A DNA stretch of 64,000 bases from an uncultured delta proteobacterium (GCA_963755715.1 CAVWLW010000073.1:97152-161151), one strand, 5' to 3'; positions 3,441-47,946 are shown, counted from the first letter of the stretch. Translations and numbers: made by a program. Notes: generated from the letters alone by a model not told the origin.

Positions 3441-3551
3441 TTAACCGCGTTTGCGAGCCAGCGCTCGCTGCGTCTCCCGGACGGCTGTGCGGACCCATAA
3501 AGTTGTTCCCGCCAGAAATACAATCGGCATGATCAGTGTAGCGAAGGTCAT
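3441..3551 (-). CDS. 36-aa single-pass membrane microprotein MTFATLIMPIVFLAGTTLWVRTAVRETQRALARKRG (absent from the ORF track)
   Basis: Hand-translated; AAGGAGAGGTGG RBS; consensus sigma54 promoter ~40 bp upstream; hydrophobic N-terminus and basic tail. Confidence 0.65.
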   Translation of the reverse strand: MTFATLIMPIVFLAGTTLWVRTAVRETQRALARKRG

Positions 3552-3589
3552 AGAATTCACCACCTCTCCTTATATCGCAGATACAAGTG

Positions 3590-3604
3590 GCAACGATCGT
3601 GCCA
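3590..3604 (-). promoter_or_regulatory. sigma54 -24/-12 promoter
   Basis: TGGCAC-GATCG-TTGC, a consensus match. Confidence 0.8.
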
Positions 3605-3700
3605 GAGCACCTCCAGTTTTTTGTTATCTGCAAATGATGAGAATCGCACGGGACACCAACGATCGCGTATTCACGTTAACCAAACCCTAGCTAAAGAGCA

Positions 3701-3734
3701 TGTCGCTCCATCGGCACACGCCGAAATAGTGACG
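3701..3734. promoter_or_regulatory. Tandem 16+2+16 enhancer-like site (candidate UAS)
   Basis: TGTCGCTCCATCGGCA-CA-CGCCGAAATAGTGACG, ~97 bp upstream of the 3590-3604 promoter. Confidence 0.6.
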
Positions 3735-3875
3735 TCCGGAAAAAGCGAGGATGTTTCATCGTGGCGGAGAACTCGCGCTAGTGATTGGACACGTGGGCTT
3801 GTCAGGTACGCCGACTTGGCGCGTCACTACTCTTCGATACCGGGGGCAACGGCTGGAAACGACCGGCCTCAAGCA

Positions 3876-3909
3876 AAAGCCTGATTCGACACCTGTCGAG
3901 TATAAGGCG
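3876..3909. promoter_or_regulatory. Tandem enhancer-like site (candidate UAS)
   Basis: AAAGCCTGATTCGACA-CC-TGTCGAGTATAAGGCG, ~100 bp upstream of the 4009 promoter. Confidence 0.55.
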
Positions 3910-4008
3910 CCATTTTTTCGTCACTAGTAACCGCGCACGCTCTTGCGAGATCACCATAACTTCCCACACCCTGCTATCCATAAGCGTTTTCTCGACATTG
4001 ATAGCGGG

Positions 4009-4023
4009 TGGCATATCGATTGC
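4009..4023 (+). promoter_or_regulatory. sigma54 -24/-12 promoter
   Basis: TGGCAT-ATCGA-TTGC, 40 bp upstream of the ATG at 4064. Confidence 0.8.
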
Positions 4024-4063
4024 GCTTAGGATCCTTCAACAATAACGAAAGGAGGTGAATCAA

Positions 4064-4366
4064 ATGAAAAACGCAAAATCACTTTTAGCCGCTCTGATTC
4101 TTCTCGGTAACATCATAGCGAGTGGTGCAGCTCTAGCCGCCGACGGTACTATTTCTAAGACCGAAGAGGTGCCGGGCAGCTACTGTCATGAGAAGTTTCC
4201 CGCGATAGAAGGAAAGAGTTTGGCTGACGACGACCCGGCGCTCAAAAGCAAGAAGTCAGGAGATGTCATCGACTACTACGGACCGTGCACTGAGAGTCCG
4301 GTCGGGCAAGATCAGGCGCAAGAGCAAAAATTGGAACGAGAACATCGCATGGAGAACAACTACTGA
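4064..4366 (+). CDS. Secreted two-cysteine protein, 'VIDYYGPC' family, copy 1
   Basis: AAGGAGGTGA RBS; signal peptide ending AALA-A; SYCHEKFPAI...SGDVIDYYGPCTESPVGQDQ; paralogue at 31018-31332. Confidence 0.85.
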   Translation: MKNAKSLLAALILLGNIIASGAALAADGTISKTEEVPGSYCHEKFPAIEGKSLADDDPALKSKKSGDVIDYYGPCTESPVGQDQAQEQKLEREHRMENNY

Positions 4367-4381
4367 AACGACTATTGCCGT

Positions 4382-4421
4382 AATGGTTGGAGGGGGGAGT
4401 AACGACCCCCTTCAGACCATT
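4382..4421 (+). terminator. Stem-loop just after the 4064-4366 gene (possible terminator or stabiliser)
   Basis: AATGGTTGGAGGGGG...CCCCCTTCAGACCATT imperfect inverted repeat; no clear U-tract. Confidence 0.35.
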
Positions 4422-4815
4422 GCCTCCAGCCGACAATTATCTTTCCCCGAAAAGATTGAAGAACGACGAAACCACTGCGGCGATCCAAATCGCACGAATT
4501 ATTTGCGACGGGGTGTCTTGGCATCGAAGATCAATGTCCCGGATATCACGTCAGAGAATCATGATCTGTCAGATTTGTCTCGTAGCAGATTTCAATCTTC
4601 GTACTCACGCCAATGAATGGGGCCCCCCCGAGGATGCTCCAGATAGTAGGTCTCACTGTTCTGTAGCACCGAGCATCCAGAAATCGCGACGAGAAGTAGG
4701 AAAATTAACAGCGCAGTGTACTTCATGATAGGTTGTCGTGGCGGTTTTTGAGCGCACCTGTCGTTCCGGTTGCACGGCGTTCGCTCCTTTCTGCTTCACC
4801 TTGACGGTTTTCTAG

Positions 4816-5040
4816 CTAGAAGGAGCTGACCTCTGATTCGACGCGAGTTTTGATTTCAATCTCGTTGACAAAGACGTACGTGCTAACACCACTGTCCCAT
4901 GCGACGCTAATAAGCTGACGCCCAAGGTTATCGATGACGCCCTGAATGGTCCCCTCGGTGAATCTCCCGAGCCGCCCCCCGTGGGTTCTGATCTCCTTCG
5001 TGGTGTGACATCTCATGCCCTTTTGGATTCCGTTGATCAT
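4816..5040 (-). CDS. Hypothetical 74-aa protein (beta-rich, possibly SH3/KOW-like)
   Basis: AAGGAGG RBS and its own sigma54 promoter; alternating hydrophobic pattern EGTIQGVIDNLGRQLISVAWDSGVSTYVFVNEIEI. Confidence 0.7.
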   Translation of the reverse strand: MINGIQKGMRCHTTKEIRTHGGRLGRFTEGTIQGVIDNLGRQLISVAWDSGVSTYVFVNEIEIKTRVESEVSSF

Positions 5041-5086
5041 TTGCGAATTCCTCCTTTTCGACGCCTCCAGATAATGACTTCAAAGG

Positions 5087-5101
5087 GCAATCCGTATGCC
5101 A
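5087..5101 (-). promoter_or_regulatory. sigma54 -24/-12 promoter
   Basis: TGGCAT-ACGGA-TTGC. Confidence 0.75.
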
Positions 5102-5162
5102 TCCAACGGCAAGATATTTCTGAGCGCCCGACGCGATTAATTATCGACCGGACGACGGCCCG

Positions 5163-5196
5163 AGTCGTCATATCGACGGACGTCAAAATGACGACT
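5163..5196. promoter_or_regulatory. Tandem enhancer-like site between divergent sigma54 promoters
   Basis: AGTCGTCATATCGACG-GA-CGTCAAAATGACGACT. Confidence 0.6.
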
Positions 5197-5298
5197 GAGT
5201 AACGTCAGTTTTCTTTTTGCGAAGTCATTATGAGGATCGCTGGCCGAGTCAATTCGTGAGCTTGCATGAGGATTGACCAGAGCCGGGCGGCGGCGCAT

Positions 5299-5313
5299 TG
5301 GAACAGGATTTGC
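5299..5313 (+). promoter_or_regulatory. sigma54 -24/-12 promoter of the mdtABC-nodT operon
   Basis: TGGAAC-AGGAT-TTGC; GG-N10-GC spacing kept. Confidence 0.65.
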
Positions 5314-5341
5314 CCTTACAAAGACGCTGAGTGAAAAGTTG

Positions 5342-9799: not shown

Positions 9800-9801
9800 C
9801 C

Positions 9802-12922: not shown

Positions 12923-12925
12923 TCA

Positions 12926-16125: not shown

Positions 16126-16512
16126 TCATTTAGACTTGAGAGCCGTGTCGATTGCCTTCAATAACGCTTCCTCGCTGAATGGTTTGAGTAAGTATTCCAC
16201 TGCGCCGCCGTTGAGGGCCCGCACCCGCGCCTCTTCATCGCCATGAGCGGTGATGAAGATAACCGGGATCGACATATGACTGGCAGCTAAGCGACGTTGA
16301 AGCTCGAGTCCATTCATGCCAGGCATGCGCACATCGAGGATCAGGCAGTCCGTATCGGAGAGATGATTCGAATTCAAAAACTCTTCGGCCGAAGCAAACA
16401 CCAGAGCTCCGAACCCGACAGAACGGATTAAACCGCTGAGAGATTCGCGGACCGAGTCGTCATCATCGACGATTGATATAAGTGGAAGAATTAGGCATGC
16501 TGACTCTTTCAT
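16126..16512 (-). CDS. Single-domain response regulator (FixJ-like receiver)
   Basis: IVDDDDSVRESL...LILDVRMPGMNG...FITAH...LLKPF. Confidence 0.92.
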   Translation of the reverse strand: MKESACLILPLISIVDDDDSVRESLSGLIRSVGFGALVFASAEEFLNSNHLSDTDCLILDVRMPGMNGLELQRRLAASHMSIPVIFITAHGDEEARVRALNGGAVEYLLKPFSEEALLKAIDTALKSK

Positions 16513-16552
16513 ATCGCTGGTGATGATTTAAGTTAGCAGCGTTTTAAACGAA

Positions 16553-16575
16553 GAATCTATTATACTTTGGTATAG
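16553..16575. promoter_or_regulatory. Conserved palindromic regulator box, copy 1
   Basis: GAATCTATTATACTTTGGTATAG; differs at one base from 30242-30264. Confidence 0.7.
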
Positions 16576-16608
16576 GTGGTTAAGAGGCCTTGAGCTCCGC
16601 CGCCGCTC

Positions 16609-17240
16609 CTACAATATTTTGGCGCGAGGAATTCTCAGCTTCTCACACATCCTGACCAGATCCGCCAGAGACTCCGCCTGCATTTTTTGCATGACTTGAC
16701 CGCGATGAACTTTGACAGTGATCTCGCTGGTGCCCAGCTCGGCGGCGACTTGTTTGTTGAGCATGCCCGGAGACCACCAACTCCATCACCTCTCGCTCGC
16801 GCGGCGTCAGCGATTCGTACCGGGCCATAAAGTTCCGCCATCTCGGCATGTTGTCGGCGTGCGGCCCGGTCGCGTTTTATCGCCTGATGAATCGCATCCA
16901 ATAGATCCCGATCACGGAATGGCTTGGTAAGAAACTCAATGGCTCCCGCTTTCATCGCCTGCACCGAGGTTGGAACATCGCCATGGCCCGTAATAAAAAT
17001 AATCGGAATCTCAATGTTGGCTTCCGCCATCCGTTTCTGCAGATCGAGCCCGCTCAGACCCGGCAGTCGAACATCCAAGACCAGACAGCTCGGCACATCC
17101 GACCGCGGGCGTGCCAAAAACTCCTGTGCAGAGGCAAAGGTCTCAACTCCCAAGCCGGCCGATCGAATCAGACTTCCCAAACCTTCTCGCACTGACACGT
17201 CGTCGTCCACGACAAAGACGATTGCTTTGGGTCCGGCCAT
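16609..17240 (-). CDS. NodW/FixJ/TodT-family response regulator (REC + LuxR HTH), frameshifted in the HTH region
   Basis: Receiver, then [15 protein letters not shown] and [39 protein letters not shown] in alternate frames. Confidence 0.9.
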
Positions 17241-17248
17241 AGCGCTCC

Positions 17249-17759
17249 CTAGAGGTACTTCAAAAGCGTAAATTGAAATGTTGTACCGGGACTCTCATTA
17301 GGTACGGTCCAAAGGTGCCCGCCGTGGTTCTCGATAATCGAACGACTGATCGCCAGCCCCATCCCCATTCCCTGCGATTTGGTGGTGTAAAAGGTATCGA
17401 AAATCTTTTCCAGATTCTGCCGAGTCGATCCCAATACCGGAATCTTGCACGGCGACGAGTACTTTGTCTGATTCATGTTGACGAGAACGGATGAACAACT
17501 CTCGAGGTCGATCGGCTACTGATGCCATCGCTTCGATACCGTTCATCACCAGATTGAGAATCACTTGTTGAAACTGGATCCGGTCACCCATCACAAACGG
17601 CAGATCATCGGCTAGCTCTGTCGGTAATGCAACACGATTTCGTCGCACTTCACCCTCGGCAAGCGCAATGACCTCCCCAATGGTGTCGTTGATGTTTAGT
17701 CGCACTTTCTCTGTATCCGTTTTCCTGACGAGCGCTCGAATGCGCGCGATCACCTCACC
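17249..17759 (-). pseudogene. Orphan second half of a NodV-like kinase core (end of HisKA + HATPase), abutting the upstream kinase
   Basis: Begins abruptly at GEVIARIRALV with no H-box; QQVILNLVMNGIEAM and GMGMGLAISRSIIENHGG present. Confidence 0.7.
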
Positions 17760-20701
17760 CTGATCGCGAGTCCCATCCCCATTCCCTGCGACTTGGTGGT
17801 GTAGAAAGTATCGAAGATCTTTTCAAGATTCTGCCGATCAATCCCGATCCCAGAATCTTGCACGGCGACGAGCACATTATCGGATTCGTGCGGAGAGGAT
17901 CGAATAAGCAGGTCCCGCGGTCGATCCGTGACCGTATCCATGGCTTCGATACCGTTCATCACCAGATTAAGAATTACTTGTTGCAACTGGATTCGATCGC
18001 CCAATACAGGCGGGACATTGGTGGCCAAGTCCATGCGTATCGCCACTCCTTTTCGCACCGCTTCATTTTGCATCAGAAGGATGACTTCCTGAATGGTTTG
18101 GTTAATGTCGAGGCGCACTTGCTCGGTATCGGTTTTTTGTACGAGCGCTCGAATGCGCGCGATCACCTCGCCTGCCCGATTGCCATCGCGGACAATGCGG
18201 CTCACGGCGTTGCGCGCTTCGTCGAGGTTTGGGGTCGCCGCGGCAAGCCAGCGCAGCGAGGCATTGGCGTTTGCGATGACGGCGGTGAGCGGCTGGTTGA
18301 CTTCATGCGCAATCGAGGCGGTCATCTCGCCCAGAGTTGCCACCCGCGTAACGTGGGCGAGCTCCATCTGTGCATGGTGCAACGCATCTTCGGCGCGCTT
18401 GCGCTCGATGAACTGACCTATCTGGCTGCCTATGGTAGCCATCATGTCGAGCAGATCCTGATCGGGCTGCCTGATCTCGTAGCTGAAGAACTCCATGACC
18501 CCCAAAACTTCGCCGCCGAGCAGGATGGGAAAACCGAAGGCCGCGTGCAGCACTTCGCGCGCGGCGATGGGCGCGCGCGGAAAATTAGCATCACGGACGA
18601 CATCGGGAATGTACAGGGGCTCACGGCTGAACCAGACTCGGCCGGGCAGCCCGATCCCGGGGATAAAAGTGGTCGCGTGGCTGGTGGCCTCAAATTCCGG
18701 GACCTCTATGGATTCTTTATGCCAAACCTCGACGCATCGTAGTACGCCCGCCTCTTTGTCTAGGCTCCATAGCGCCCCCACGTCCCATACCAGACACTCA
18801 CACACGGCTCGAAGAATTTTTGCAGTGGCTTCCTGGAGAGTAGCCGCCTGCGCCAGTATCTGTGTGACGGTATGTTGCGCCACTAGGCGCTGCTCGGCCT
18901 GCTTGCGCTCGGTGATGTCTTGCACCGTGCCGAACATGCGCCGGGGCCGGCCCGACTCGTCCCACATGACATCGCCCTGACTATGCACGAGTCGCACCTC
19001 GCCGTTGGGCCGGACCACTCGGTACTCCACATCGTAGCGCGGGCCACCCCGAAGCGCCTCCGCCACGGCTTTAATTACGATCTGTTTATCTTCGGGATGA
19101 ACCAGTTCCGGCAATTGGGCTAGGTTTAGAATCCGTTCTTGCGGGCTGCAGCCCAAAGATGCGGTAGGTTTCGTCCGACCAAGTGATAAGATCCGTATCG
19201 GTGTCGCGCTCCCAGTGGCCGACGTGCGCGAGGCTCTGGGCTTCTTCCAGCTTGCGCTCGCTTTCGCCCTGGTTGCGAAACATCAATAAGCTGGTCAGAG
19301 CATCTTCCAACCGTCGGCCGATCTCCTGGAAAAGCCGCTCTTCCTGCGAGTGTCCAGACTCGCGGGTACGAGCACTGGTGCAGCCCCAACATGTAGGGCT
19401 TGTCCCCTTTGGGATAAACCGCCATGGCAATAATGAGACTGTATGCTGAAACGCTTCGCCGTTTCTGCCGGCAGCGAATGTTCCGATGCCGGACCAAATC
19501 GCACAGGACCACTGGAAGCTCTGACGGTTTGGAACGCCTTCGCGACGTCCGGAACCACGGGCAGATCGAGTCCCAAGGCGAAGGCACCGGGAAATTCGGG
19601 TCGAACATGTTCCATCGACACTTTCCACGATGCAGCCTCCGGATCACAGGGATAGACCAGCCACGCTCGATCGCAATTAAAGATCGCAAGCATTGCGTCA
19701 AGCACATCGCTCATCATCTGCTCGAGGTCGTTCGTTCCCTGGATGGCTCGGTTAACCTGATCCATGCTCTCCAGGAACCAGAGATGAGCCTGGCGCTCCT
19801 CCTCGGCCCGCTTACGCTCGATCGCGATACTCGCAAGATCGGTGATCTGTTCGATGATGCTTTGCTGTTGTGGCGTAGGACTTCGCGGTTCGCGGGAGTA
19901 GATCGCGAAGGTTCCCAGCACCCGGCCATCCGACGCGAGTACCGGCGTAGACCAACACGCTCGGAGCCCGTGTGGTAAGGCCAGCTCGCGATAGTTGGCC
20001 CACAGCGGATCCGTGGCGATGTCGGAGACGATTACTGGTTCTTTGCGATAAGCGGCCGTTCCGCACGATCCCGCGGCAGGACCGATAAAGCCACCGTCGA
20101 TCGCGTCGGTATAGCTCTTTGGAAGGCTCGGCGCTGCGCCGTGCCAAAGGCGATTGCCATCCGGATCCAACAACAGAATCGAAGCCAGAGAACCTTCGGA
20201 CAGCTCTTCGACAAGCCGGCACAAGGCTTCGAGGATCATGGAGAGGGAATTGCCTTTGGCGATCATTTCTAAAAGCCGTTTCTCTTCCGACAGTAATGCT
20301 TCGGCGCGCTTGCGCTCGCCTCTCTCCTTCGCTTCACGTAATGCTCGGTGCACCGAGGGCGCAATTCTCGATAGCCGCTGTTTTAAAATATAATCGGTTG
20401 CGCCAATCTTGAGTGCTTCAACCGCCACTTCTTCGCCCAGGGTTCCAGAGACAAAGATGAAAGGCACATCGGGACATTTTTCCAGGGCGATTTTCAATGC
20501 AGAAAGGCCGTCGAAGGAGGGCAGGGTGTAATCTGTAAGGATCAGGTCAAAACCCCCGCGCTCGATTGAAGCGAAGAAATCAGCCTGAGTGTCAACGCGT
20601 GTTACAGCACAGATAATGCCTTCGGTCTCAAGAATTCCCTGAATAAGTTCTGCATCCGTGGGGTTATCTTCAAGATGCAGAATACGCAAAGGAGGCTTCA
20701 T
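17750..20701 (-). CDS. Hybrid sensor kinase REC-GAF-GAF-PAS-GAF-HisKA-HATPase, frameshifted and cut off after GMGMGLAI
   Basis: LRILHLEDNPTD receiver; GAF motifs (GSCGTAAYRKEPVIVSDIATDPLW; GIGLPGRVW); PAS (VHPED, DITERK); H-box SIAHEVNQPL; pieces 19295-20701, 19126-19707, 19086-19628 and 17750-19156. Confidence 0.85.
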
Positions 20702-20736
20702 AATTACTATCTAGCTCGCTTTTGAAATCATTCTGG

Positions 20737-21189
20737 TCATTTCTTTCTTATGCTTCCTGGTGGCGGCTCATTGATGACTGCCCAGAAAATGCCAAGTTCT
20801 TTGATCGCATTGACAAACTCGTGGAAATCAACCGGCTTTACCACGTAGGCGTTCACGCCAAGTTTATAGCTTGCTACCATGTCTCTTTCCTCACGAGAGG
20901 ATGTGAGCACTACCACAGGAATCATTTTCAGTTTCTCATTGGATTTAATCTGCTGCAGCACCTCCAAGCCATCGACCTTGGGCAACTTTAGATCGAGCAG
21001 CAGGACAGCTGGGTTATCACTGGTGCGCATCTTGAAATTCCCCCGGCAATAAAGATAATCCAGAGCCTCTTCGCCATCACGCGTGACGACAACCTCGTTG
21101 GCAAGGTTATATTCCTCCAGAGCTGTCAGAGTAAGTTCCACGTCTTTGGGATCGTCCTCCACGATCAAAATACGTCCTAACTCGCTCAT
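20737..21189 (-). CDS. Rcp1-like single-domain response regulator
   Basis: VEDDPKDVEL; LLDLKLPKVDGLEVL; LTSSREERD; YVVKPVDF; FWAVINEPP. Confidence 0.92.
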   Translation of the reverse strand: MSELGRILIVEDDPKDVELTLTALEEYNLANEVVVTRDGEEALDYLYCRGNFKMRTSDNPAVLLLDLKLPKVDGLEVLQQIKSNEKLKMIPVVVLTSSREERDMVASYKLGVNAYVVKPVDFHEFVNAIKELGIFWAVINEPPPGSIRKK

Positions 21190-21192
21190 AAT

Positions 21193-22698
21193 TTACTCCT
21201 CCCATGATTTAGGAACCGAGAAATAAAAGGTTGCGCCTTGATCGACCAGACCTTCAGCCCAGACCCTGCCGCCGTGACGATGGATAATGCGCTGAACGGT
21301 AGCCAGTCCTATACCCGTGCCTTCAAATTCTTCAGCCCGGTGCAGACGTTGGAATACGCCAAATAGCTTATTTACATACTTCATGTCGAAACCGACTCCA
21401 TTGTCTCTAATGAAAACGACGATATCGTTTTCCTTCCCATCGACGCAGCCAATCTCAATCTCGGGTTGCGGGCGTTTGCGCGTAAATTTAACCGCGTTGG
21501 ATACGAGATTCACCAGTGCAAGTCGCAGCATCGCACGGTCGCCATACAAATTGGGCAATGCGTCAATTCTCCAACCCACATTGTGCCCATCTGTCTCCGG
21601 TCGTACTTCACTTAAGACTTCTTTCACAAGCTGTTCGAGGCTCACCATTGTTTTTTGGGTCTCAGCACGTCCGATTCTTGAAAAGGCCAGCAGGTCATCG
21701 ATCAAGTCGCCCATTCGTTTTGCCGATTCCAGTATCATCGTCATATACCGGCGGCTCTTTTCATCGAAACTTGAAGAGGCGTTTTTTTGAAGCAGCTCTG
21801 CATACCCGGCCATATGGCGAAGTGGCGCGCGCAGGTCATGCGATATGGAATAAGCAAATGCTTCTAATTCTTTATTGACCATTTCAAGGTCTCCGGTGCG
21901 CTCGACGACCCTTTGTTCGAGCTCTTCGTTCAGTTTGCGAATTTCTCCTTCCGCTCGCTTGCGCTCGGTGACGTCATTGTTTGTCTCCAGGATCGCGTCG
22001 GGCTGCCCCTGGGCATTGCGCTGCAGCGCCCACCTGCTCCCCACAATGAGTTTTGTCCCGTCCAGTTTTGTGTGGGTAAGATCTCCTTCCCAGCGGCCAC
22101 TACGCAGCAACTCCGCGTTAATCTCTTCAAGCGGTGCGGGAAAGATCGTTTGCAACAAGTCGTGAGTGCGCCGCCCAACCGCGTCCTCTGCCGTCCACCC
22201 GTACAACTCCCGAGCCCCTCGATTCCAGTAAGTGATGACATCGCTCATATCGCGGACGAAGACCGTATCATGCGTCAGATTGAGAAGGCTCGCCTGCTGG
22301 GTTCGCTCAGCCACTTCAATCTCGAGTTTATCCCGCGCCTCCCGAAGCTCTCGCTCGATCCGGCGTCGCCTGGAGCTGAACCACGCCATTATGAATCCGA
22401 ATAAAATAAAGAGGACAAATAAAGGGCGATCAGCAGGATGGACGTAGAAACTGAACCGGGGCTCCGCAAAAAAGTATTCGAAGCTCAGGACTGCCACTAA
22501 AAGCGCGAGGGCACCCGGCCCGTTCCCCGCATACCAAATCGTTATGGCTATGGCGCCGAGCAAAAGCGGGAATTCGAGGTTGGGGATCGCGTAGACTTGC
22601 GCGAGGAGCGCCAACCCCAATGCGATTGCAACGGAGACGATTGCCAAGCCGAATTTCAGCACTGTGACGCGCGGCGATGAAATTTCAGGTTTCGACAT
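21193..22698 (-). CDS. Membrane sensor kinase DUF4118-like TM-PAS-HisKA-HATPase (Cph1/bacteriophytochrome-type kinase core)
   Basis: AFAYSISHDLRAPLRH; NAVKFT; LFGVFQRLH..EEFEGTGIGLA. Confidence 0.92.
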   Translation of the reverse strand: MSKPEISSPRVTVLKFGLAIVSVAIALGLALLAQVYAIPNLEFPLLLGAIAITIWYAGNGPGALALLVAVLSFEYFFAEPRFSFYVHPADRPLFVLFILFGFIMAWFSSRRRRIERELREARDKLEIEVAERTQQASLLNLTHDTVFVRDMSDVITYWNRGARELYGWTAEDAVGRRTHDLLQTIFPAPLEEINAELLRSGRWEGDLTHTKLDGTKLIVGSRWALQRNAQGQPDAILETNNDVTERKRAEGEIRKLNEELEQRVVERTGDLEMVNKELEAFAYSISHDLRAPLRHMAGYAELLQKNASSSFDEKSRRYMTMILESAKRMGDLIDDLLAFSRIGRAETQKTMVSLEQLVKEVLSEVRPETDGHNVGWRIDALPNLYGDRAMLRLALVNLVSNAVKFTRKRPQPEIEIGCVDGKENDIVVFIRDNGVGFDMKYVNKLFGVFQRLHRAEEFEGTGIGLATVQRIIHRHGGRVWAEGLVDQGATFYFSVPKSWEE

Positions 22699-22764
22699 GC
22701 CTTTGCAGCCTCAGATGTTCATCCTGGTCTTGTTCCACGATAAGGGCGACTGCGTCTGCCTCAG

Positions 22765-24690
22765 TCATGACGCCGTCCCGTCACCAGCCGGCAAGGTGAA
22801 TTGAAATACAGCGCCTCTGTCGTCATTCGCTGTCGCCCAGAGTCGCCCGCCGTGCGCCTCGACAATTGAGCGGCTGATGGCCAGTCCCAGGCCCATGCCG
22901 TGAGGCTTGGTTGTATAGAAAGCCTGGAAGAGGCCATCGAGACTACCCGGATCCAAGCCAGGACCCGAATCTCGAACTGCCACCAACACGCTCTCCGAAT
23001 CATCTTTGGCGCAACCGATTAACAACTCTCGCGGCGCATCGCTGATTCCGTTCATCGCGTCGATGGCGTTGATCATCAAGTTGAGAATCACTTGTTGCAA
23101 TTGAATTCGATCTCCCAGAATGCGCGGCACGTCATCGGACAGTTGGGTTTGTAGTGACACGCGATTCTCATACACTTCGCTGCCCACTAGCGCGATGACT
23201 TCACGTATCGTTTCGTTGAGGTCGACCCAGTCTTTCCGCGATGGAGTTTTGTTGACGAAGGCGCGAATCCGGCCGATGATTTCGCCGGCACGATGACCGT
23301 CTGCGATGATACGCGCGGCGGACTCTCGGGCCTCCTCCAGGTTCTGCGCCGCGAGCCAGCGCAAGCAAGCACTGGCGTTGTTGACCACTGCGGTAAGCGG
23401 CTGGTTGATTTCATGGGCGATAGAGGCTGACATTTCTCCCAGCATGGCCACTCGCGTGACGTGGGCCAACTCTGCCTGTGCATGGTACAGCGCGTCTTCG
23501 GCCTGCTTGCGCTCGGTCACGTCCATCACGGTACCCACGGCCTCTACGAGATCGCCGGATGCGTTGAAAACAGGATGACCTATGGCATGGATGTATTTCA
23601 TCGCACCGTCTGGCAGAACGATTCGGCAATCCAGTTCGTAGCCCGTCCTCTCGCTGACTGCTCGCTCGAGGATTTCGGCGGCCTTGGCTCGATCGTCCGG
23701 ATGAATCCGCTGGCGAAATGTTTCGAATGACGGCATCCCGTGTTCTGGATCGAAGCCGAATATGCGGAAGTGTTCCAGCGACCAGTGGACGATCTGTCTG
23801 GTGGCGACATTGAATGCCCAACTGCCCGTATGGCTCAGTCTCTGCCCCTCAGCCAAATAGGTTTCAGTGCGATGGAGAGACTCGTTTGCCCGCGCCAATT
23901 CTGCGGTTCGTTCTGCGACCAACCCCTCCAGATCGTCATGAGCACGATGGAGCGCCTGCTCTGTCTGCCGGCGCACGGCGATCTCGCCCTCCAATTGGGC
24001 GTTTTGCCTGGCAAGCTGCTCAAGCATGCCGTTGACTGTTTGTGCAAGAGTGTCGAGTTCGCCCGATCCGCTTGGCGTTGCGACGCGGCGTGAGAGATCG
24101 CCTTCGACGATGGCCGACGCCGTGCGGCTGATTTCATGCACCTCGAAAAGCAGCGCACGTCGAATCATCCAGCCGAAAGCAGCACCCAGGACCAACACGA
24201 GGCCCATTGCGCCTGCAAGCCCATACCAGAAGCGGTCGACGAGCGACTCGAAGCGGACGCTTTCGCGGCCCATCAGAAGGTGGTACCCGCCCGGTAACGT
24301 CACATGCGAAGCGACTACCCGCATCGTCGATCCGCCGCGCAGACCTATCACCAGTCCATACGTTCCGGGTGCGTCGGGGACCTCGGCGGGCCACGCGGTC
24401 AAATTTCCAGCGAGCCGCAGTTTCGACGCGTCTGCGAAGACCATGATTTCGTCCCTGGGCAAGCTTCTCGCCTGTGACTCCATCGCTGTAGTAAGTCCCT
24501 TCGCGCCTTCGCTGTGGAACACCTCGACCAGGCGTTGCAGGTCCTCTCCCTGAACGTACGCCCTGAAGGTCGAGAGGTTCGCGCGCCAGGCATACCAAAG
24601 CGGAATCGCAAACAAGGCGAGCATGAGCACGCTGAGGACGACGTAAGCAAGCGCTAACCTGGAAGGAGAGAGGCGGAAGAATCTGATCAT
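22765..24690 (-). CDS. Sensor kinase TM-periplasmic-TM-HAMP-PAS-HisKA-HATPase (NodV-like core)
   Basis: Two TMs; HAMP GDLSRRV..SGELDTLAQTVNGML; SIAHEINQPL; GMGLGLAISRSIVEAHGG. Confidence 0.9.
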   Translation of the reverse strand: MIRFFRLSPSRLALAYVVLSVLMLALFAIPLWYAWRANLSTFRAYVQGEDLQRLVEVFHSEGAKGLTTAMESQARSLPRDEIMVFADASKLRLAGNLTAWPAEVPDAPGTYGLVIGLRGGSTMRVVASHVTLPGGYHLLMGRESVRFESLVDRFWYGLAGAMGLVLVLGAAFGWMIRRALLFEVHEISRTASAIVEGDLSRRVATPSGSGELDTLAQTVNGMLEQLARQNAQLEGEIAVRRQTEQALHRAHDDLEGLVAERTAELARANESLHRTETYLAEGQRLSHTGSWAFNVATRQIVHWSLEHFRIFGFDPEHGMPSFETFRQRIHPDDRAKAAEILERAVSERTGYELDCRIVLPDGAMKYIHAIGHPVFNASGDLVEAVGTVMDVTERKQAEDALYHAQAELAHVTRVAMLGEMSASIAHEINQPLTAVVNNASACLRWLAAQNLEEARESAARIIADGHRAGEIIGRIRAFVNKTPSRKDWVDLNETIREVIALVGSEVYENRVSLQTQLSDDVPRILGDRIQLQQVILNLMINAIDAMNGISDAPRELLIGCAKDDSESVLVAVRDSGPGLDPGSLDGLFQAFYTTKPHGMGLGLAISRSIVEAHGGRLWATANDDRGAVFQFTLPAGDGTAS

Positions 24691-24870
24691 AGGTCTTCGG
24701 TATTCAGCCGGCGCGGAGTTCACCTACGCGCGGCTAATCTCCAATGATATAACCGCCGGGGTCCAGCGGGTTGTGATCGTAATGGAATGACGGGGTGTTA
24801 ATTGGTACTGCACAAAAGTCTCCAACGTATCGGCAAGCCTTGCGTCTCCGGCGATCATTCGAATACTTGG

Positions 24871-27699: not shown

Positions 27700-27850
27700 G
27701 GCTGCTGACCTTCCATAGAACATAAGCCCTGAAGGTCGAGATGTTCATGCGCCTGGCATACCAGGGCGGAATGGGCAATATAGCGAGCACGGGCACGCTG
27801 AGCGCGATGTAACCGAGCGCCAACTGGGAGAAGCGGAAGAACCTGATCAT
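27692..27850 (-). pseudogene. Truncated 52-aa copy of the N-terminus of the HAMP kinase (24690-22765)
   Basis: MIRFFRFSQLALGYIALSVPVLAILPIPPWYARRMNISTFRAYV versus MIRFFRLSPSRLALAYVVLSVLMLALFAIPLWYAWRANLSTFRAYV. Confidence 0.8.
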
Positions 27851-27991
27851 ATGCGTTCGGTATTCAGCCGGCGTGAGTCCGCCTGGTCGTTATGGTACTG
27901 CACAAAGTCTCCAACATATCAGCACGCCTTGCACCTCCAGCGATTATCTCCAATGCATGGTCAGCGGTCGTGGGTAAAAGCACGTCCAGTC

Positions 27992-30113
27992 TTACTTCAA
28001 AAGCGTAAATTGAAACGTCGCCCCGGGACCGTCATTGGGCACGGCCCAAAGCCGTCCGCCGTGGTTCTCAACAATCGAGCGGCTGATCGCCAGTCCCATC
28101 CCCATTCCCTGCGACTTAGTGGTGTAGAAACTATCGAAGATCTTGTCGAGATTCTGTGAATCGATTCCAACACCGGAGTCTTGGACAGCGACGAGCACTT
28201 TGTCGGATTCGTGCGCAGAGGATCGAATAATCATCTCTCGCGGTCGGTCCGTGACAGTATTCATGGCTTCGATACCGTTCATCACCAGATTAAGAATCAC
28301 TTGTTGCAATTGGATTCGATCGCCCGATACACGGGGGAGACTGGCCGCCAGGTTCATCTTCAGCACCACGCCGGATTTTTGTATTTCGCTGTGCGTCAGA
28401 CTCACAACTTCTTGGATGACTTCGTTAATGTCCAGAAGCGTCTTCTCAGTGTCGCCTTTTTGGACCAATGCACGGATGCGTCTGATCACATCGCTGGCCC
28501 GGTTGCCGTCTCTGACGATTCGCGATATCGCATCCCGCGCTTCGTCTAAGTTCGGTGTTGAATTGGCAAGCCAGCGGAAACAAGCGTTAGCATTAGCAAC
28601 CACGGCCGCAAGCGGCTGATTGATCTCATGAGCGATCGACGCGGTCAGTTCTCCCATGATCATAACCCGCCCTACGTGCGCCAGTTCGCCTTGCGCCTCG
28701 CGCAGAGCGTGTTCCGCGCGGCTGCGTTCCGCGCGCGTGCGCAGCGCAGTCACCCCATAGGCCAGATTATCCGCCAGCTCCGTGAACAGCTCCACTGCGC
28801 GTTCATCGAAAGCACTCGATTGTTCAGCGTAAAGAGTGAGGGCGCCAAACGGTTTGCCATCAGATATCAACGGCAGTGAGATGTTCGAACGGTAGCCCCG
28901 TTTCAGGGCCTCATCCCGCCACGGCGCGATACTCGAATCGGTTTCAATATTCTTGGTCCACGTAGGTTTGCCGGTCCGGATCGCAGTGCCGGTAGGCCCA
29001 TGACCTCTTTCAGTATCTTCCCAGGTAGCCTTGACGCTTTCTACGTACCCTTCGTCGTATCCTGCTTGCGCCACCGGCCGAATCGACTTTTCCAAGTCAA
29101 GCTCCCGGTAACCGACCCACGCCATCCGCAGTCCGCCGGCGTCCACGAGAATACGACAGGCCGCCTGCAAGAGTTCGTATTCATCCGTGGCATGAACCAG
29201 AGCCTGGTTGCATTGGTAAAGAGTCTGCAAGGTCCGGTTCAGCCTGGCCAACTTGTCTTCGGCTTGTTTGCGCTCCGTTACGTCGAGCAGCGCACCGGAA
29301 AACCTGACTAAGGTACCGTCCGTATTCCGGATCGCTTCGGCCATGCTTTGCACGAAGCGAATCGAGCCATCAGGGCGGATGATGCGATATTGGATATTGT
29401 AAGGCCTACCGTCGCGAACCAGCTGATCGTAACGTTCCATCGCATATTGTCGATCTTCGGGATCAACAATGCGCTCGACAAAATCTTTGCGAGCCCAGGC
29501 GCCGTTTTGCGGATTCAGGCCCAAGATGCGAAATATCTCATCTGACCAACGGCTCGCCCCAGTGAAGCAGATCGATTTCGTAGCTTCCCAGATGGGCGAT
29601 CCTCTGGGCCTGCTTGAGCTGGGCTTCGCTTGATCGGAGCGCTATCTCGGCTTCTTTTCGCTCAGTGATTTCTCGCTAGCAGCTCTTGGTTGGCGCGCTG
29701 AAGCTCCACGGTGCGCTCTTGCACCTTCAATTCCAGCTCGTCGCGGGCCTGCCGAAGTGACTCTCTGGCGCGCTTCTGACTTGCGCTCAACCAACTGATC
29801 GAGGCCGCAGAAAGGAAAAATACAATCATGCGCGGCAAGTCCTCCGCGCTCAAGGCTCCAGAGTATAGTAGGGCGACGTAAAGTGATAGTCGATCAGCCC
29901 GACTGAAAGTGAACTCGCGAGCAATCCGGGTCCAAGCCCGCCCAGCCAGCTGCTGAGCACGACTGCACAAAAGAACAATGAGTTGGGTGTGGGATCAAAG
30001 TAGGTCCTCAGCAACTCTTTGATAATAAGCGCGGTGGCGACAGATAAGACAGCGAGCCCGTACCTGAGAAGGATCGACGTGATGCGCCGTTTTGGCGTCC
30101 CAAACTTCGACAT
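27992..30113 (-). CDS. Sensor kinase DUF4118-like TM-PAS-GAF-HisKA-HATPase, frameshifted between ~29520 and ~29930
   Basis: LRYGLAVLSVATA...SSWLGGLGPGLLA; GAF HGPTGTAIRTGKP; SIAHEINQPL; pieces 29850-30113, 29662-29970 and 27992-29524. Confidence 0.85.
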
Positions 30114-31371: not shown

Positions 31372-31386
31372 GCAAGGGCTGCGCCA
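31372..31386 (-). promoter_or_regulatory. sigma54 -24/-12 promoter
   Basis: TGGCGC-AGCCC-TTGC(T), 40 bp upstream of the ATG. Confidence 0.78.
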
Positions 31387-31482: not shown

Positions 31483-31516
31483 TGACGAATTTTCGGCATG
31501 AGCTTAAATGTCGACA
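31483..31516. promoter_or_regulatory. Tandem enhancer-like site (candidate UAS)
   Basis: TGACGAATTTTCGGCA-TG-AGCTTAAATGTCGACA, ~97 bp upstream of the promoter. Confidence 0.62.
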
Positions 31517-37669: not shown

Positions 37670-37684
37670 GCAATCGATGTGCCA
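37670..37684 (-). promoter_or_regulatory. sigma54 -24/-12 promoter of the second RND operon
   Basis: TGGCAC-ATCGA-TTGC. Confidence 0.82.
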
Positions 37685-37769: not shown

Positions 37770-37803
37770 TGCCGCTGTGTCGACAGGTGCCGAAATACGG
37801 GCG
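37770..37803. promoter_or_regulatory. Tandem enhancer-like site (candidate UAS)
   Basis: TGCCGCTGTGTCGACA-GG-TGCCGAAATACGGGCG. Confidence 0.62.
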
Positions 37804-41171: not shown

Positions 41172-41186
41172 GCAAGCATTGAGCCA
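41172..41186 (-). promoter_or_regulatory. sigma54 promoter upstream of the two SOD genes
   Basis: TGGCTC-AATGC-TTGC(T). Confidence 0.65.
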
Positions 41187-41487: not shown

Positions 41488-41502
41488 TGGCACACGCCTT
41501 GC
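41488..41502 (+). promoter_or_regulatory. sigma54 promoter with no recognisable downstream gene
   Basis: TGGCAC-ACGCC-TTGC. Confidence 0.7.
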
Positions 41503-42560: not shown

Positions 42561-42575
42561 GCAAGGCTTGTGCCA
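42561..42575 (-). promoter_or_regulatory. sigma54 promoter of the DUF302 gene
   Basis: TGGCAC-AAGCC-TTGC. Confidence 0.78.
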
Positions 42576-42674: not shown

Positions 42675-42708
42675 TGACGGCCTATCGACAGCAGGCAAAA
42701 TATCGGCA
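42675..42708. promoter_or_regulatory. Tandem enhancer-like site (candidate UAS)
   Basis: TGACGGCCTATCGACA-GC-AGGCAAAATATCGGCA, 100 bp upstream of the promoter. Confidence 0.62.
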
Positions 42709-43009: not shown

Positions 43010-43093
43010 GGAACTCTCACGCGTTAGACATCATGCGATCTCTTCTAGTGTCGAGATTTCGTCTGGAACACACCCACTCATCTCTGGAACAGA

Positions 43094-43108
43094 GCAAGGG
43101 ATATACCA
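43094..43108 (-). promoter_or_regulatory. sigma54-like promoter
   Basis: TGGTAT-ATCCC-TTGC(T). Confidence 0.5.
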
Positions 43109-43290
43109 GTTACGGAAAGCGATTGCCTGGCACTCAGCGTTTGCCGCAGACGTTGGGGTGAGGCTTCTTTCCTGACGATCTTCCTCTTAGCCACACCTCT
43201 CTCCTCTTAGCCACACCAGTTTTGAATGTTCGACACCGCGGTATCTTTGGATGAACGCGTATTTTCGCCGTCGATGTGCAGCACAATCCA

Positions 43291-43305
43291 TGGCGTGGGT
43301 CTTGC
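43291..43305 (+). promoter_or_regulatory. sigma54 promoter of the Pro-rich protein / glycine-zipper pair
   Basis: TGGCGT-GGGTC-TTGC(T), 36 bp upstream of the ATG. Confidence 0.72.
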
Positions 43306-43824: not shown

Positions 43825-43836
43825 GCGGAGTTAAAT

Positions 43837-44343
43837 ATGAACGCGAGACTACTCTTCATCATTTTATTGGCGACGATCACAGGGTGCGCCACGATCCCGA
43901 CCGGACCGACTCTAGCGGTGATGCCCGCCCCGGGAAAACCTTTCGAAGTTTTTGTCGCCGATGACACCGTGTGCCGGCAGTTTGCTGATCGGCAAACCGG
44001 CATCAATCCTCAAACAGCCGCCACGCAAGACACTGTGAGTGGTGCGGCGATTGGGACAGCGGTGGGAGCTATCGCTGGAGCGGCGATCGGAGCCGCCGCA
44101 GGTAATCCCGGAATAGGCGCCGGCGTCGGCGCCGGAACGGGATTGCTCGTAGGTACCGGAGCTGGTGCGCATGTCGGGTATGGAACAGGCTTCACGCTGC
44201 AACAGCGATATAATATTGCCTACGAGCAATGCATGTACGCCAAAGGAAACCAAATTCCAGGTCTTGTCCCGATGAGTCCTCCAGCAATAGCGCCGTCATC
44301 GTCGTTTCCGCCGCCACCGCCAAATTACCAACCGGCGCCATGA
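43837..44343 (+). CDS. Glycine-zipper lipoprotein (YMGG-like)
   Basis: Lipobox ITGC; GAAIGTAVGAIAGAAIGAAAG; QQRYNIAYEQCMYAKGNQIP. Confidence 0.85.
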   Translation: MNARLLFIILLATITGCATIPTGPTLAVMPAPGKPFEVFVADDTVCRQFADRQTGINPQTAATQDTVSGAAIGTAVGAIAGAAIGAAAGNPGIGAGVGAGTGLLVGTGAGAHVGYGTGFTLQQRYNIAYEQCMYAKGNQIPGLVPMSPPAIAPSSSFPPPPPNYQPAP

Positions 44344-44821
44344 CGATGACTTTCAGCAAGGTGCTGCCTCGCTATCGTAGGCGTTGGCTGACTTTCTTCC
44401 TTGGGCGCTTAGTGGCGAAGACACGGCAGCCATGCCTTGAACAGCGATCCACGGCCTATGCCCTCATTTGCCGAGTGGTTTGGCGATGGAGCGGCCGATC
44501 TGGTTCGAAGCATCGGCCTATTGAGACCCTATTCTCCGCAATCTTGACCGGAGTCGAAGGAAGGAAAAGCTGGTACACAAGACATTTTGTGTCACGCATT
44601 TCTCCCGCGACAGGCACACCCCGTTTAGTTCAAGTATTCCAAAAGTCCGCCGCGCAGAAGGGCAAGCTTAGCTGCGTGGAGCGTCGCCGGGCCGTATGTG
44701 GCTCGGAGCTTTTGATCACCCTGCGGCTTTGATAGGATGGTTGAGTTCAGACTTCTACGCATTCATTCGACCAGATACATTGAGAAGTATCTCTAATTCA
44801 TCGGATGGAGGCGCGGGCGTC

Positions 44822-46380
44822 TTGAAGCTAGATTCTCTGGCACAGCGAATTCCCTGCGGTTTGGCAATACGGATTTGCCATGCTGGGTGTCGCAGTGGCG
44901 CTGGGCATCACGAACTCGCTGGAGCGCCACACCACACTCCGAACGCCGCTCTTTTACATAGCAGTCATCATCAGCGCATGGTTCGGTGGAATCGGGCCGG
45001 GGTTGCTTGCCGTAGCGCTCTCCACGCTGGTAGTAGGCTACTACTTTGCGCCAGGGAACCAGATGCCGACGGTAAGCATAGACAACCGGCCATTCATCCT
45101 CCTGTTCTTATTGTCAGCCCTGCTCGCCTGCTGGATAAGTGTTCAACGGCGGAGGGCAGAGGAGGCGCTCAAGGAGGCGCGCGATGAGTTAGAAGCTCGA
45201 GTCGAGGAGCGGACCGCCGACCTGCGGCGGGTTACTGAAGGAGTTGCAGGCCGAGATCGCGGAACGCAAACGCGGCGAAGAGGTTTTGCGAGAAAGGGCA
45301 AACCTCCTCGATCTCACGCACGACACAGTCTTCGTGCGCGACATCAACGACGTCATCACCTTCTGGAATCGTGGCGCCGAAAAACTGTACGGATGGACAA
45401 AGGACGAGGCGGTCGGGCAGGTTTCTCACCACCTCACGCAGACGATCTTCCCGGCACCGTTGGAAGAGATCACAGCAGAGCTCAAGAGCACGGGTCGCTG
45501 GGAGGCGGAATTGATCCACACTCGGCGCGACGGAACACAGGTGGTGGTGGCGAGCCGCTGGGCGCTGCAATTGGACGAACGGGGAAAACCGGTTGGAGTC
45601 CTGGAGACTAATAATGACATCACCGAGCGCAAGCGGGCCGAAGAAGCGCTACACAAGGCGCAGGCGGAGCTGGCGCATGTCACGCGCGTGGCGACTCTGG
45701 GCGAGATGACTGCCTCCATTTCCCACGAGGTAAACCAGCCGCTCTCCGCTGTTATCACCAATGCTAATGCCTCTTTGCGTTGGCTCACCCGCCAATCGCC
45801 TGATCTAGATGAGGCACGGGCCGCCGTGGAGCGCATCATCCGTGATAGCAGCCGTGCAAGCGAAGTGATCGGGCGAATTCGCGACCTCGTCAAAAAATCG
45901 CTTCCGCGGCAGGACTGGCTCAATATCAATGACGCGGTCCTAGAAGTCATTGCACTGGCTCGCAGCGAAATGCACATGAATCGTGTTTCGTTACAAACTC
46001 AACTCGCGGATAATTTGCCGGCCGTACGCGCAGATCGAATTCAGCTTCAACAAGTAATCCTCAATCTGCTTATCAACGGCATCGAAGCGATGAACCGGAG
46101 TAACGAAGGGAGCCGCGAGTTAGGGGTCAGTACTGAGAGAGACGGATCGAGCGGCGTGGTGATTGCCATACGCGATGCGGGGGTGGGGCTGAATCCAGAA
46201 AATCTAGAACATCTCTTCGACCCTTTCTACACGACGAAGCCGGATGGAATGGGGATGGGGCTGGCGATCAGCCGCTCGATCATCGAGGCACACGGGGGCC
46301 TTCTTTGGGCTACGCCCAATACGCCTTGCGGTGCAGTCTTTCAATTCACGCTGCCCCATGACAGCGAGAGAGAATCATGA
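44822..46380 (+). CDS. Sensor kinase DUF4118-like TM-PAS-HisKA-HATPase (NodV-like core), frameshifted near 44852 and 45240
   Basis: AWFGGIGPGLLAVAL; LLDLTHDTVFVRD PAS; SISHEVNQPL; GMGMGLAISRSIIEAHGG. Confidence 0.88.
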
Positions 46381-46483
46381 CTCTCCTACCCTGTGTAAGC
46401 CAATTCGAAAACTGGTGCCCATCACGAATGACGAGCGCACCTTTGAAGTAACCGCACAGTTTTTCTAAACGTCGCCGTATTTG

Positions 46484-46912
46484 CTAAAGCAGTTTTGCGG
46501 TCAGGCGAATGTTCGTTCCGGCCAGCGCCTTTGACACAGGACAATTCAGTTTGGCGTCCAGCGCATATTTTTGAAATGTCGCGTCGTCCATGCCAGGAAT
46601 GTCGGCCTCGGTCTCCAACTCGATCGATGTGATGGAAAATCCTTCGCCGATCTTTTCCAGTTTCACTCGCGCTTCGGTATGGATGCGCGTTGGCGTGATT
46701 CTCCCGCGCGAGAGCTGCGCGGTCAGCGCCATCGTGAAGCACCCGGCGTGAGCCGCGCCAATCAACTCTTCCGGGTTGGTGGCCGATTGGCCTTCCTCAA
46801 ATCGGGACTTAAACGAATACGGGCCGTCAAACGCGCCACTGGCCAATTTCAACCGTCCGCTGCCTTCGGCCAAATTGCCTTGCCATTCTGCTTCCGCTTT
46901 CCGTGTTGGCAT
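46484..46912 (-). CDS. osmC: OsmC peroxiredoxin
   Basis: AEAEWQGNL; SFKSRFE; TNPEELIGAAHAGCFTMAL; NCPVSKAL. Confidence 0.93.
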   Translation of the reverse strand: MPTRKAEAEWQGNLAEGSGRLKLASGAFDGPYSFKSRFEEGQSATNPEELIGAAHAGCFTMALTAQLSRGRITPTRIHTEARVKLEKIGEGFSITSIELETEADIPGMDDATFQKYALDAKLNCPVSKALAGTNIRLTAKLL

Positions 46913-46962
46913 AAAGACTCCTGTCGATTTGCTGCTGCGATGCGACCGCAGTGGTTTCAGCC

Positions 46963-47647
46963 CTACCGGGCTGAGTATTTCGGGGCTGAGTATTTCGATA
47001 GAACCTGCAGCAACTTCTGTTCACCCGCCGGCGGTTTTACCTTGCCCGCGAGAATGTCCTTGGCCGCGACCGGCTTACCGTAGTATTCCGCGTTGGCCTC
47101 ATCCCGGGTCGCGATTACCGTGCCCTCCAAAGAAATACCGGCAAAAAGTCCCTGGCTGATACTATAACGTATACATGGCCGCCTGCAGCGCCACATTTCC
47201 CTCGGCGGTACGCCCGACCGGACCGGCCGCTGCGCTCAGGTTGCCCCCGAGGGTAACATTGCCGCCCTTCGAGAATGCGTCAACAGCTTCTTGAGTGTTG
47301 AGGACAATCACAAATTCAGTGATCTCCACGCCAGCTTGAAAGCCGACTCCTATCCCTCCCGTACCGATTGCCGAAGGACCGCTCCAACCCTTTCCGGTTC
47401 GCGCGACGACAATGCCGCTCCCGCCTCTGCCACTGCCGATGAACCCGGCTTTCGTAACGGTCAAGATCGCTAAACCTTTAGCGTCTCGCAGAACTCTATC
47501 GGGAATTGCTCGGTCAGGGATTTCCTGGAAGCGCTGAATAATCGTCACGGCCTGATTGACGTCGTCCTGCGTGCTCGCATGCGCGGCGGTGGCATTCAGA
47601 AACACGACGAGAAGAACTGCAACAATTGAAAAAGTAATTGGTCTCAT
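46963..47647 (-). CDS. SYLF/Ysc84-like lipid-binding secreted protein, frameshift near 47163
   Basis: Signal peptide; KAGFIGSGRGGSG; WSGPSAI; GFQAGVE; AAAGPVGR; SQGLFAGISLEG. Confidence 0.88.
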
Positions 47648-47757
47648 CTTGGCACTCTCCTTTTTTTTCGGCCGAGCGTTCATGCATACCGCGGTGGATG
47701 ATCGCTGCGCGCCGCGGTTTCATTTGAATGATCGCTCGGCTGCTAGACCATGGAACA

Positions 47758-47772
47758 GCAAGGATTAAGCCA
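47758..47772 (-). promoter_or_regulatory. sigma54 promoter of the SYLF-osmC unit
   Basis: TGGCTT-AATCC-TTGC(T). Confidence 0.68.
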
Positions 47773-47912
47773 GCCAGCCAACGGCTTTGACTTTTGTGTC
47801 ATCGATCTATGGGAGCACCGCAATTTATTATCTATTGTGAGTAACAGAGATGAAGAAGCGGGTCACAATCGACAAGCTTTTTGTTCTGTCGCTGCTTCTG
47901 ACGAAAATGTCG

Positions 47913-47946
47913 TGTCGATATACCGGAGTGAGTCGAAATCTCGACA
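47913..47946. promoter_or_regulatory. Tandem enhancer-like site (candidate UAS)
   Basis: TGTCGATATACCGGAG-TG-AGTCGAAATCTCGACA. Confidence 0.62.

Follow-up and report, generated by a model that had tools for sequence, protein, structure and literature searches.

A shared tandem enhancer at sigma-54-type promoters suggests an FhlA-clade regulon with two differently sensing activators in an uncultured delta proteobacterium

A cluster of sigma-54-type promoters occupies positions 3441 to 47946 of a 64-kb stretch of DNA from an uncultured delta proteobacterium (CAVWLW010000073.1), hereafter the window, which forms the final 64 kb of contig C73 in a draft genome of 7.4 Mb and 76 contigs. Nine or ten of its 12 promoters share an upstream enhancer made of two palindromes in tandem, and the same enhancer recurs at a few promoters elsewhere in the genome. 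A moderately probable explanation, drawn from sequence comparison, is one FhlA-clade regulon for chemical stress (detoxification and efflux) that is read by two activators with different sensors, one encoded in the island (14507-15913) and one on contig C67; the island would then be the largest cluster of this genome-wide FhlA-clade sigma-54 regulon. The name Candidatus Binatota is attached to an 88% identical relative of the local activator, and Binatota is also one Atlas neighbour of a small protein of the island (4064-4366), so that this soil bacterium probably belongs there.

All 12 -24/-12 motifs listed in a preliminary description are present where it placed them, and they are by sequence sigma-54-type promoters. 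For sites on the minus strand that description gave the low coordinate; the TGG sits 14 bases higher and provides the name used here (e.g., 3604 for 3590). TGGC-N7-TTGC occurs 14 times in the window, compared with a mean of 4.71 over 233 overlapping 64-kb windows genome-wide; with other spacer lengths the window has 0-8 occurrences, so that the excess is specific to the spacing. With a local matrix trained on the genome minus contig C73, 11 of the 12 sites score 15.4-20.9 bits and site 5299 scores 7.7, while the RpoN matrix as printed in PMC7658346 (Table 2; maximum 21.2 bits) places all 12 at 10.9-16.7 bits and finds 13 window sites of at least 10 bits, where the mean is 4.67 and 6 of 233 windows are equally high. 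Eleven intergenic sites reach 14 bits in the local matrix, whereas 300 dinucleotide shuffles of the non-coding DNA of the window gave 0.37 +/- 0.62 such sites and never reached 11 (0/300), which bears out the expected density above shuffled intergenic DNA. The genome mean is 1.67 such sites per 64-kb window, and 11 are reached by only 3 of 233 windows, namely this one and two overlapping ones on contig C30. A single PF04552 match (rpoN) was found, on contig C34.

The preliminary description had also held that all sites are intergenic and that all but 41488 face an adjacent gene. Site 41488 does lack a supported gene, and 43108 and 3604 face small open reading frames (ORFs), but "intergenic" is approximate because the gene caller, a simple frameshift-tolerant model, misses some small genes. 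The ORF behind 41488 (41588-41920) belongs to a three-member cluster and has no Pfam match, and since Rfam has no match anywhere in the window, no known RNA lies behind this site either; 41488 may drive no gene. A thirteenth site at 62211, ahead of an aldehyde dehydrogenase gene, was rejected (8.3 bits, no enhancer), and site 2832 was not counted in (12.3 bits, no enhancer). Contigs assembled from four soil RNA runs overlap parts of 2001-17000, among them the 4064 gene and non-coding stretches, and reveal neither transcript starts nor levels.

Motif discovery on the 12 upstream regions returned a 16-bp palindrome with the consensus TGTCGAAATTTCGACA, paired at 18-19 bp; the enhancer consensus is TGTCGA-N4-TCGACA twice with this period, and a third half-site is often present 14 bp beyond the second. 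Enhancer centres lie 78-157 bp upstream of the promoters, within the approximately 80-160 bp expected of the sites of enhancer-binding proteins. In a leave-one-out test that set the score of each promoter against 500 shuffles, nine of the 12 promoters, corresponding to seven enhancer loci, had scores reached by at most 1 of 500. Among 32 instances from relatives that were found by the 14-bp core alone, the outer arms and the third half-site are conserved although they had not been searched for, and a model built from these other-genome instances gives scores of at least 4.5 at 8 of 12 window promoters; at the remaining 231 sigma-54 sites of the genome, scores of at least 2 occur at 5/231 upstream and at 0/231 downstream. 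The rigid spacing of this model makes it miss the 19-bp variant at 41318. Over 61 instances, the centres peak at 101-107 bp (17/61) and 111-117 bp (30/61), about one helical turn apart, and a circular test for helical phasing leaves periods of 9-13 bp unseparated (the peaks are 11 bp apart and orthologues are included among the 61). No IHF consensus was found within 220 bases upstream of the 13 promoters tested.

Outside the window, the tandem enhancer lies upstream of 6 of 231 sigma-54 sites and downstream of none, compared with 0.03% of random intergenic positions. The six promoters are spread over four other contigs: three lie on C67, just after the gene of a 695-amino acid GAF-GAF-AAA-HTH activator and amid genes for a short-chain reductase, a luciferase-like oxidoreductase, an aldo-keto reductase, a CMD protein, a glyoxalase-like protein and a GFA protein, and one on C51 heads a paralogue of the small protein of the island. 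The other dense sigma-54 island, at ~7000-66000 of contig C30 (loci L148-L150), has 15 sites, and because none of them carries the tandem, the enhancer reads as a specific element. Judged by eye, the C30 sites are followed by apparent general-stress genes, with putative products that include a CBS protein, a zinc dehydrogenase, a hemerythrin-like protein, a peroxiredoxin, a superoxide dismutase and a DUF883-like protein. A palindrome search for a second enhancer in the C30 island or at 43108 and 43291 returned AT-rich tracts only, with no upstream bias.

The window encodes a single enhancer-binding protein, as the preliminary description had noted: among 76 ORFs scanned with Pfam, the 14507-15913 product (minus strand) is the sole PF00158 match, and its AAA+ domain has Walker A/B motifs and an intact GAFTGA loop, preceded by a FixJ-type receiver (REC) and followed by a helix-turn-helix. 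This proves little about which promoters it serves, because the genome holds 31 full-length enhancer-binding proteins (22 with exact GAFTGA) and approximately 200 strong intergenic sigma-54 sites. An FhlA-type recognition helix is found in two proteins of the genome, the local REC activator and the 695-residue activator on C67. Both match FhlA best in NCBIfam (472 and 598 bits, respectively; cut-off 830), and in a quick-search tree of 48 rows, which left out two divergent activators of the genome's 31, they fall with E. coli FhlA into a single clade at 98% support. Over a 23-residue helix-turn-helix stretch, each is identical to E. coli FhlA at 18/23 positions and the two agree with each other at 17/23. 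The proposal of a self-contained regulon with one activator is therefore not supported, given the enhancer at six outside sites and the C67 activator, which belongs to the FhlA clade and has a helix of the same type.

A very improbable alternative is a patchwork, in which the promoters answer to several of the 31 activators and the tandem is bound by another factor, e.g., a repressor or the FixJ-like regulator. Sigma-54 use in this genome is indeed wide, with the enhancer-free C30 island as an example, and a published 14-bp FhlA matrix is unenriched at the window promoters (0.5 vs. 0.47 hits per promoter), the half-site alone being shared. Against a patchwork, 12 of the 14 strongest tandem sites of the genome adjoin a sigma-54 site, the density of tandems in other phyla is about eight times as high around activators that have the FhlA helix (10 in 470,549 bases) as around others (4 in 1,522,836), and the target regions of E. 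coli FhlA (hyc, hyp, hydN, and fdhF) contain the same half-site letters as the enhancer 14 times, with 3.5 expected.

The distribution of activators and promoters was compared over 90 related genomes of the family, for which the tallies are descriptive only because they comprise draft genomes and kin. Eighteen candidates per genome were scored for FhlA-clade activators, and a strict enhancer-plus-promoter pattern (the module) was searched, with the reversed pattern as a control that gave one hit. A match to the FhlA clade was obtained in 45 genomes, the module in 43 and both in 34, i.e., the module is present in 34/45 genomes with such an activator and in 9/45 without. The full-length REC type occurs in 6 of the 90, the GAF type alone in 39.

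These counts bear on whether both activators read the same sites. It is rather unlikely that the island promoters are read by the local REC activator only, with the C67 paralogue reading a site variant of its own, although the three highest module counts of all 90 genomes (8, 7, and 6) belong to carriers of close REC orthologues, while the 39 GAF-only genomes average 1.1 modules with a maximum of 4. In the same direction, the second pump of the island is found, at the thresholds used, in only two of 31 genus genomes (G000 and G018), the module occurs at only 2 of 30 SYLF genes, both of them island copies, and a few helix positions differ between the two activators. Such insulation is at odds with the other three REC-type carriers, which have 2, 2, and 0 strict matches, with the detection of island and C67 sites by a single model whichever set it is trained on, and with the presence of the module at close homologues of the small proteins of the island in G017 and G045, two genomes in which the full-length REC type was not found; in G045, the enhancer stands at 4/4 sigma-54 sites (40 kb, one contig). 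The converse, that the GAF-GAF paralogue is the sole driver and the REC activator a passenger that has other targets or is never switched on, is quite improbable as well. The GAF type has the wider distribution, and the top-scoring site of the three-part model adjoins the paralogue on C67, yet the intact REC protein has at least 120 relatives in the full-length range at 81-100% identity, and in G018, G057, and G067 the module comes directly after the REC gene. In G057, where no GAF type was found, enhancer and promoter lie ~390 bp after that gene. A rearranged homologous island in G018 has 10 sites, 7 of which bear the enhancer; a divergent promoter pair with the enhancer was also observed there, just upstream of a stretch homologous to the reductase pair of the window.

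Several observations weigh against a single FhlA-clade regulon read by both activators. The module is present in the nine genomes mentioned above in which no FhlA-clade gene was detected (drafts, with 18 candidates scored in each), and related genomes enter the module tallies as non-independent cases. In the leave-one-out test, 43108 and 43291 lack the tandem (the enhancer score of 43108 is reached by 169/500 shuffles) and 4009 also fails (170/500). One of the 32 training instances of the other-genome model is homologous to the 4009 promoter. The regions upstream of sodA and SYLF (the 41318 and 47758-47946 cassettes) are homologous over ~190 bp from enhancer through promoter, and because of this the two promoters are one copied cassette and thus non-independent. 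A strong sigma-54 site accompanies 5/6 MdtA homologues of the genus and the enhancer none, and for this reason the MdtABC-like pump can be under other activators. The detoxification role is read from gene families, with no known inducer. On the single inducible programme proposed earlier, 9-10 of 12 promoters with a common enhancer speak for it, but 43108 and 43291 have no tandem and 41488 may have no output. Site 4009 is a probable member of the enhancer-bearing set, since the inner core of its enhancer matches the pattern and is kept and the G018 orthologue scores 16.4. Promoters 43108 and 43291 probably answer to another activator.

Under a shared regulon, both activators would bind the enhancer, loop to the sigma-54 polymerase and open the promoter. 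FixL/NodV-type H-box kinases pair with FixJ/NodW receivers, and since the receiver of the local activator is a close copy of that of the adjacent FixJ-like regulator, the local activator would be switched on via phosphorylation by the neighbouring FixL/NodV-like kinases; for the C67 paralogue, the switch would be a small ligand. Genes under this control would comprise those for both RND pumps, both superoxide dismutases, OsmC, short-chain and aldo-keto reductases and small exported proteins, and the copying of an enhancer-promoter cassette may account in part for the recruitment of accessory genes. The local receiver shares 75% identity with that of the adjacent FixJ-like regulator and no more than 37% with the receiver of any other activator in the genome, which suggests that the local activator arose through a domain swap. 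We offer only tentatively, as a possible history, that the fusion of a FixJ/NodW receiver to an FhlA motor plugged a five-kinase cluster into an older ligand-sensing regulon, with the enhancer as an OR gate for two chemically different inputs, read-through from 37684 and 31386 into the kinase-activator cluster as positive feedback, and new stress genes recruited by copying the 190-bp cassette.

The signalling cluster that would provide the first input extends over 16126..30113 on the minus strand and contains a single-domain receiver (16126-16512), the FixJ/NodW-like regulator (start 17240, frameshifted), four kinases with a FixL/NodV-like H-box, and another kinase (21193-22698) with its receiver (20737-21189). 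A fifth kinase with this H-box lies apart on the plus strand (45244..46380; Pfam). The signalling genes precede the activator in the same order in G018, G057, G076, and L194, and in the window, G018 and L194 the kinase-receiver-activator cluster is downstream of the second pump and co-directional with the pump genes and with a sigma-54 promoter. The 31386 promoter and its ORFs are likewise upstream of the signalling cluster and have the same direction. Scans of 14300-32000 were no better than shuffles for sigma-70 promoters (7 vs. 9.1) or terminators (15 vs. 17.0); a sigma-70-like match (15993-16022, 10/12) was seen ~80 bases ahead of the activator gene, at a frequency no higher than in shuffles.

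Along the left part of the island, the minus-strand site 3590..3604 (15.4 bits) faces ORFs of 36 amino acids (3441-3551) and 90 amino acids (2935-3207), with a tandem enhancer at 3701..3734 (centre -113; 0/500 shuffles). A homologue of this promoter and ORF directly follows the REC activator gene in G067, where the 36-residue ORF has a 58% homologue. The 61-90-residue family of 2935-3207 (L113, L117, L147) has no Pfam match and was observed to recur behind or near enhancer promoters in many genus genomes. The plus-strand site 4009..4023 (20.9 bits) precedes a 100-residue small protein of secreted type (4064-4366), and its weaker putative enhancer (3876..3923, ~-116) has an intact core and degenerate outer arms. 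The enhancer at 5163..5196 is common to two divergent promoters: 5087..5101 on the minus strand (16.7 bits; -78), ahead of a 74-residue ORF (4816-5040; 59-member cluster), and the weak plus-strand site 5299..5313 (-119; 7.7 bits locally, 10.9 with the matrix of PMC7658346), ahead of an MdtABC-like pump with its outer-membrane channel (5342-14395; NCBIfam), both permeases of which are split by frameshifts. Frameshift-split genes in this assembly also include the permease of the second pump, the FixJ-like regulator, some kinases and SYLF.

On the right side, the minus-strand site 31372..31386 (18.9 bits; enhancer 31483..31516, centre -113) lies ahead of a paralogue of the small protein (31018-31332) and a Gln-rich ORF (30496-30963), and 37670..37684 (minus, 19.0 bits; enhancer 37770..37803, centre -102) lies ahead of the second RND pump (31733-37560) and is conserved together with its enhancer in G018. 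A tandem with a 19-bp period and the top score of the genome (41318..41352) stands between 41172..41186 on the minus strand (15.8 bits; -149), ahead of genes for an Fe/Mn superoxide dismutase (40336-40953) and a Cu/Zn superoxide dismutase (39608-40165; Pfam), and 41488..41502 on the plus strand (16.3 bits; -153). The minus-strand site 42561..42575 (17.3 bits; enhancer 42675..42708, centre -116) precedes a DUF302 gene (41864-42367; Pfam). The two promoters without the tandem are divergent: 43094..43108 (minus, 19.0 bits) faces a 62-residue ORF (42821-43009; 42-member cluster), and 43291..43305 (plus, 15.5 bits) faces genes for a Gly/Pro-rich protein and a glycine-zipper lipoprotein (43342-44343), with a sigma-54 site in 2/4 homologues and the enhancer in 0/4. 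Between them lie two copies of a 16-17-bp direct repeat with a ~20-bp period (43182-43217), a candidate site of another regulator, and a lone good enhancer palindrome (43047-43065) downstream of 43108 and 234 bp upstream of 43291 could repress the former or activate the latter. The last site, 47758..47772 (minus, 15.9 bits), is ahead of SYLF/Ysc84 (start 47647, frameshifted) and OsmC (46484-46912) and is conserved in G018, with its enhancer (47913..47946, centre -157) at an identical offset there.

Judged by its distribution, the cargo of the island is accessory: DUF302 and the island sodA each occur, at the thresholds used, in 1 of 31 genus genomes, and the second pump is scarcely more frequent. 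The 4064-4366 and 31018-31332 products represent an unnamed family of ~100 amino acids with a signal-peptide-like start, two invariant cysteines and 197 relatives, which is found in 26/31 genus genomes, the closest members standing behind enhancer-bearing promoters; this small protein has no Pfam match and no PDB match at E<=0.001, and its nearest Atlas clusters are unnamed (model mean pLDDT 76). A 102-base direct repeat with 89% identity (46563-46664 and 57309-57410) joins the osmC gene and the upstream end of a DUF3455 ORF. The right end of the window (48223-64000) contains pentose-phosphate and glycogen genes, short-chain reductases, an aldehyde dehydrogenase, cytochrome b561 and a catalase-like gene, with no strong sigma-54 sites. 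At the left end, an operon for a Tat-exported formate dehydrogenase (1-1070 and leftward on the contig) adjoins the island, and upstream of its start at 1070 there is neither a minus-strand sigma-54 site of at least 8 bits nor an enhancer, the nearby FhlA-like activator notwithstanding.

FhlA-like genes of soil bacteria are annotated as formate hydrogenlyase activators, and one relative of the local protein is so named. The likely operator and its targets here suggest a role in efflux and detoxification. None of the formate hydrogenlyase genes (fdhF/hyc/hyp) stands behind any enhancer-bearing promoter. The enhancer is sharply defined and thereby gives an entry to gene regulation in an uncultured lineage, and two activators with different sensors on one operator would, if true, clearly illustrate how a domain swap rewires regulation in nature. 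A literature search that covered few subscription journals found no account of the tandem enhancer or of sigma-54 regulation in Binatota; a matching motif may be described in the original FhlA footprinting paper, in supplements or in regulon databases.

The mechanism class, sigma-54 with an enhancer-binding protein, is textbook knowledge, and the nearest known system is E. coli FhlA (with HyfR), which has in common with both activators the clade, a near-identical recognition helix and sigma-54 promoters. The GAF-GAF layout of FhlA is matched by the C67 paralogue, in which the residues aligned to the FhlA glutamates E183 and E363 (PMC11291172) are kept; formate binding by the paralogue is putative. 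FhlA differs in that both proteins here fall below its NCBIfam cut-off and the local one has a receiver in place of the N-terminal tandem GAF domains. The FhlA site is 14 bp long, whereas the enhancer here is a tandem of 16-bp palindromes, and no tandem palindromes are present in the four target regions of FhlA in E. coli. PMC4987338 gives another 16-base enhancer for FhlA, different from the one here, and PMC3162934 lists an FhlA-like activator group.

Precedent for sigma-54 control of antioxidant genes is provided by PexR of Myxococcus xanthus, a metal-binding single-GAF peroxide sensor and sigma-54 activator for ahpC and katB (PMC12754779). PexR resembles the present case in being a sigma-54 activator of antioxidant genes with several upstream dyad sites (PMC12754779). 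In the island, by contrast, the promoters serve pumps, dismutases, OsmC and small proteins, and a receiver provides one of the inputs. Many activators, genes often beside their own promoters, and sites in tandem are features of the Desulfovibrio sigma-54 regulome in the passages concerned (PMC4641369), the main text of which does not mention FhlA, and 8-bp direct repeats are given for Myxococcus Nla28 in the corresponding part of PMC9765219. Many-activator genomes, activator genes often beside their sigma-54 promoters and tandem sites are shared with these systems, the 8-bp direct repeats of Nla28 are a difference, and the passages in question contain no case of two activators with different sensors on one site.

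FixL-FixJ and NodV-NodW are two-component clusters, and the five kinases of the window, with one H-box type and three related receivers, resemble them. In contrast to those clusters, one FixJ-type receiver is here fused to a sigma-54 ATPase, and because of this junction the kinases could reach sigma-54 promoters.

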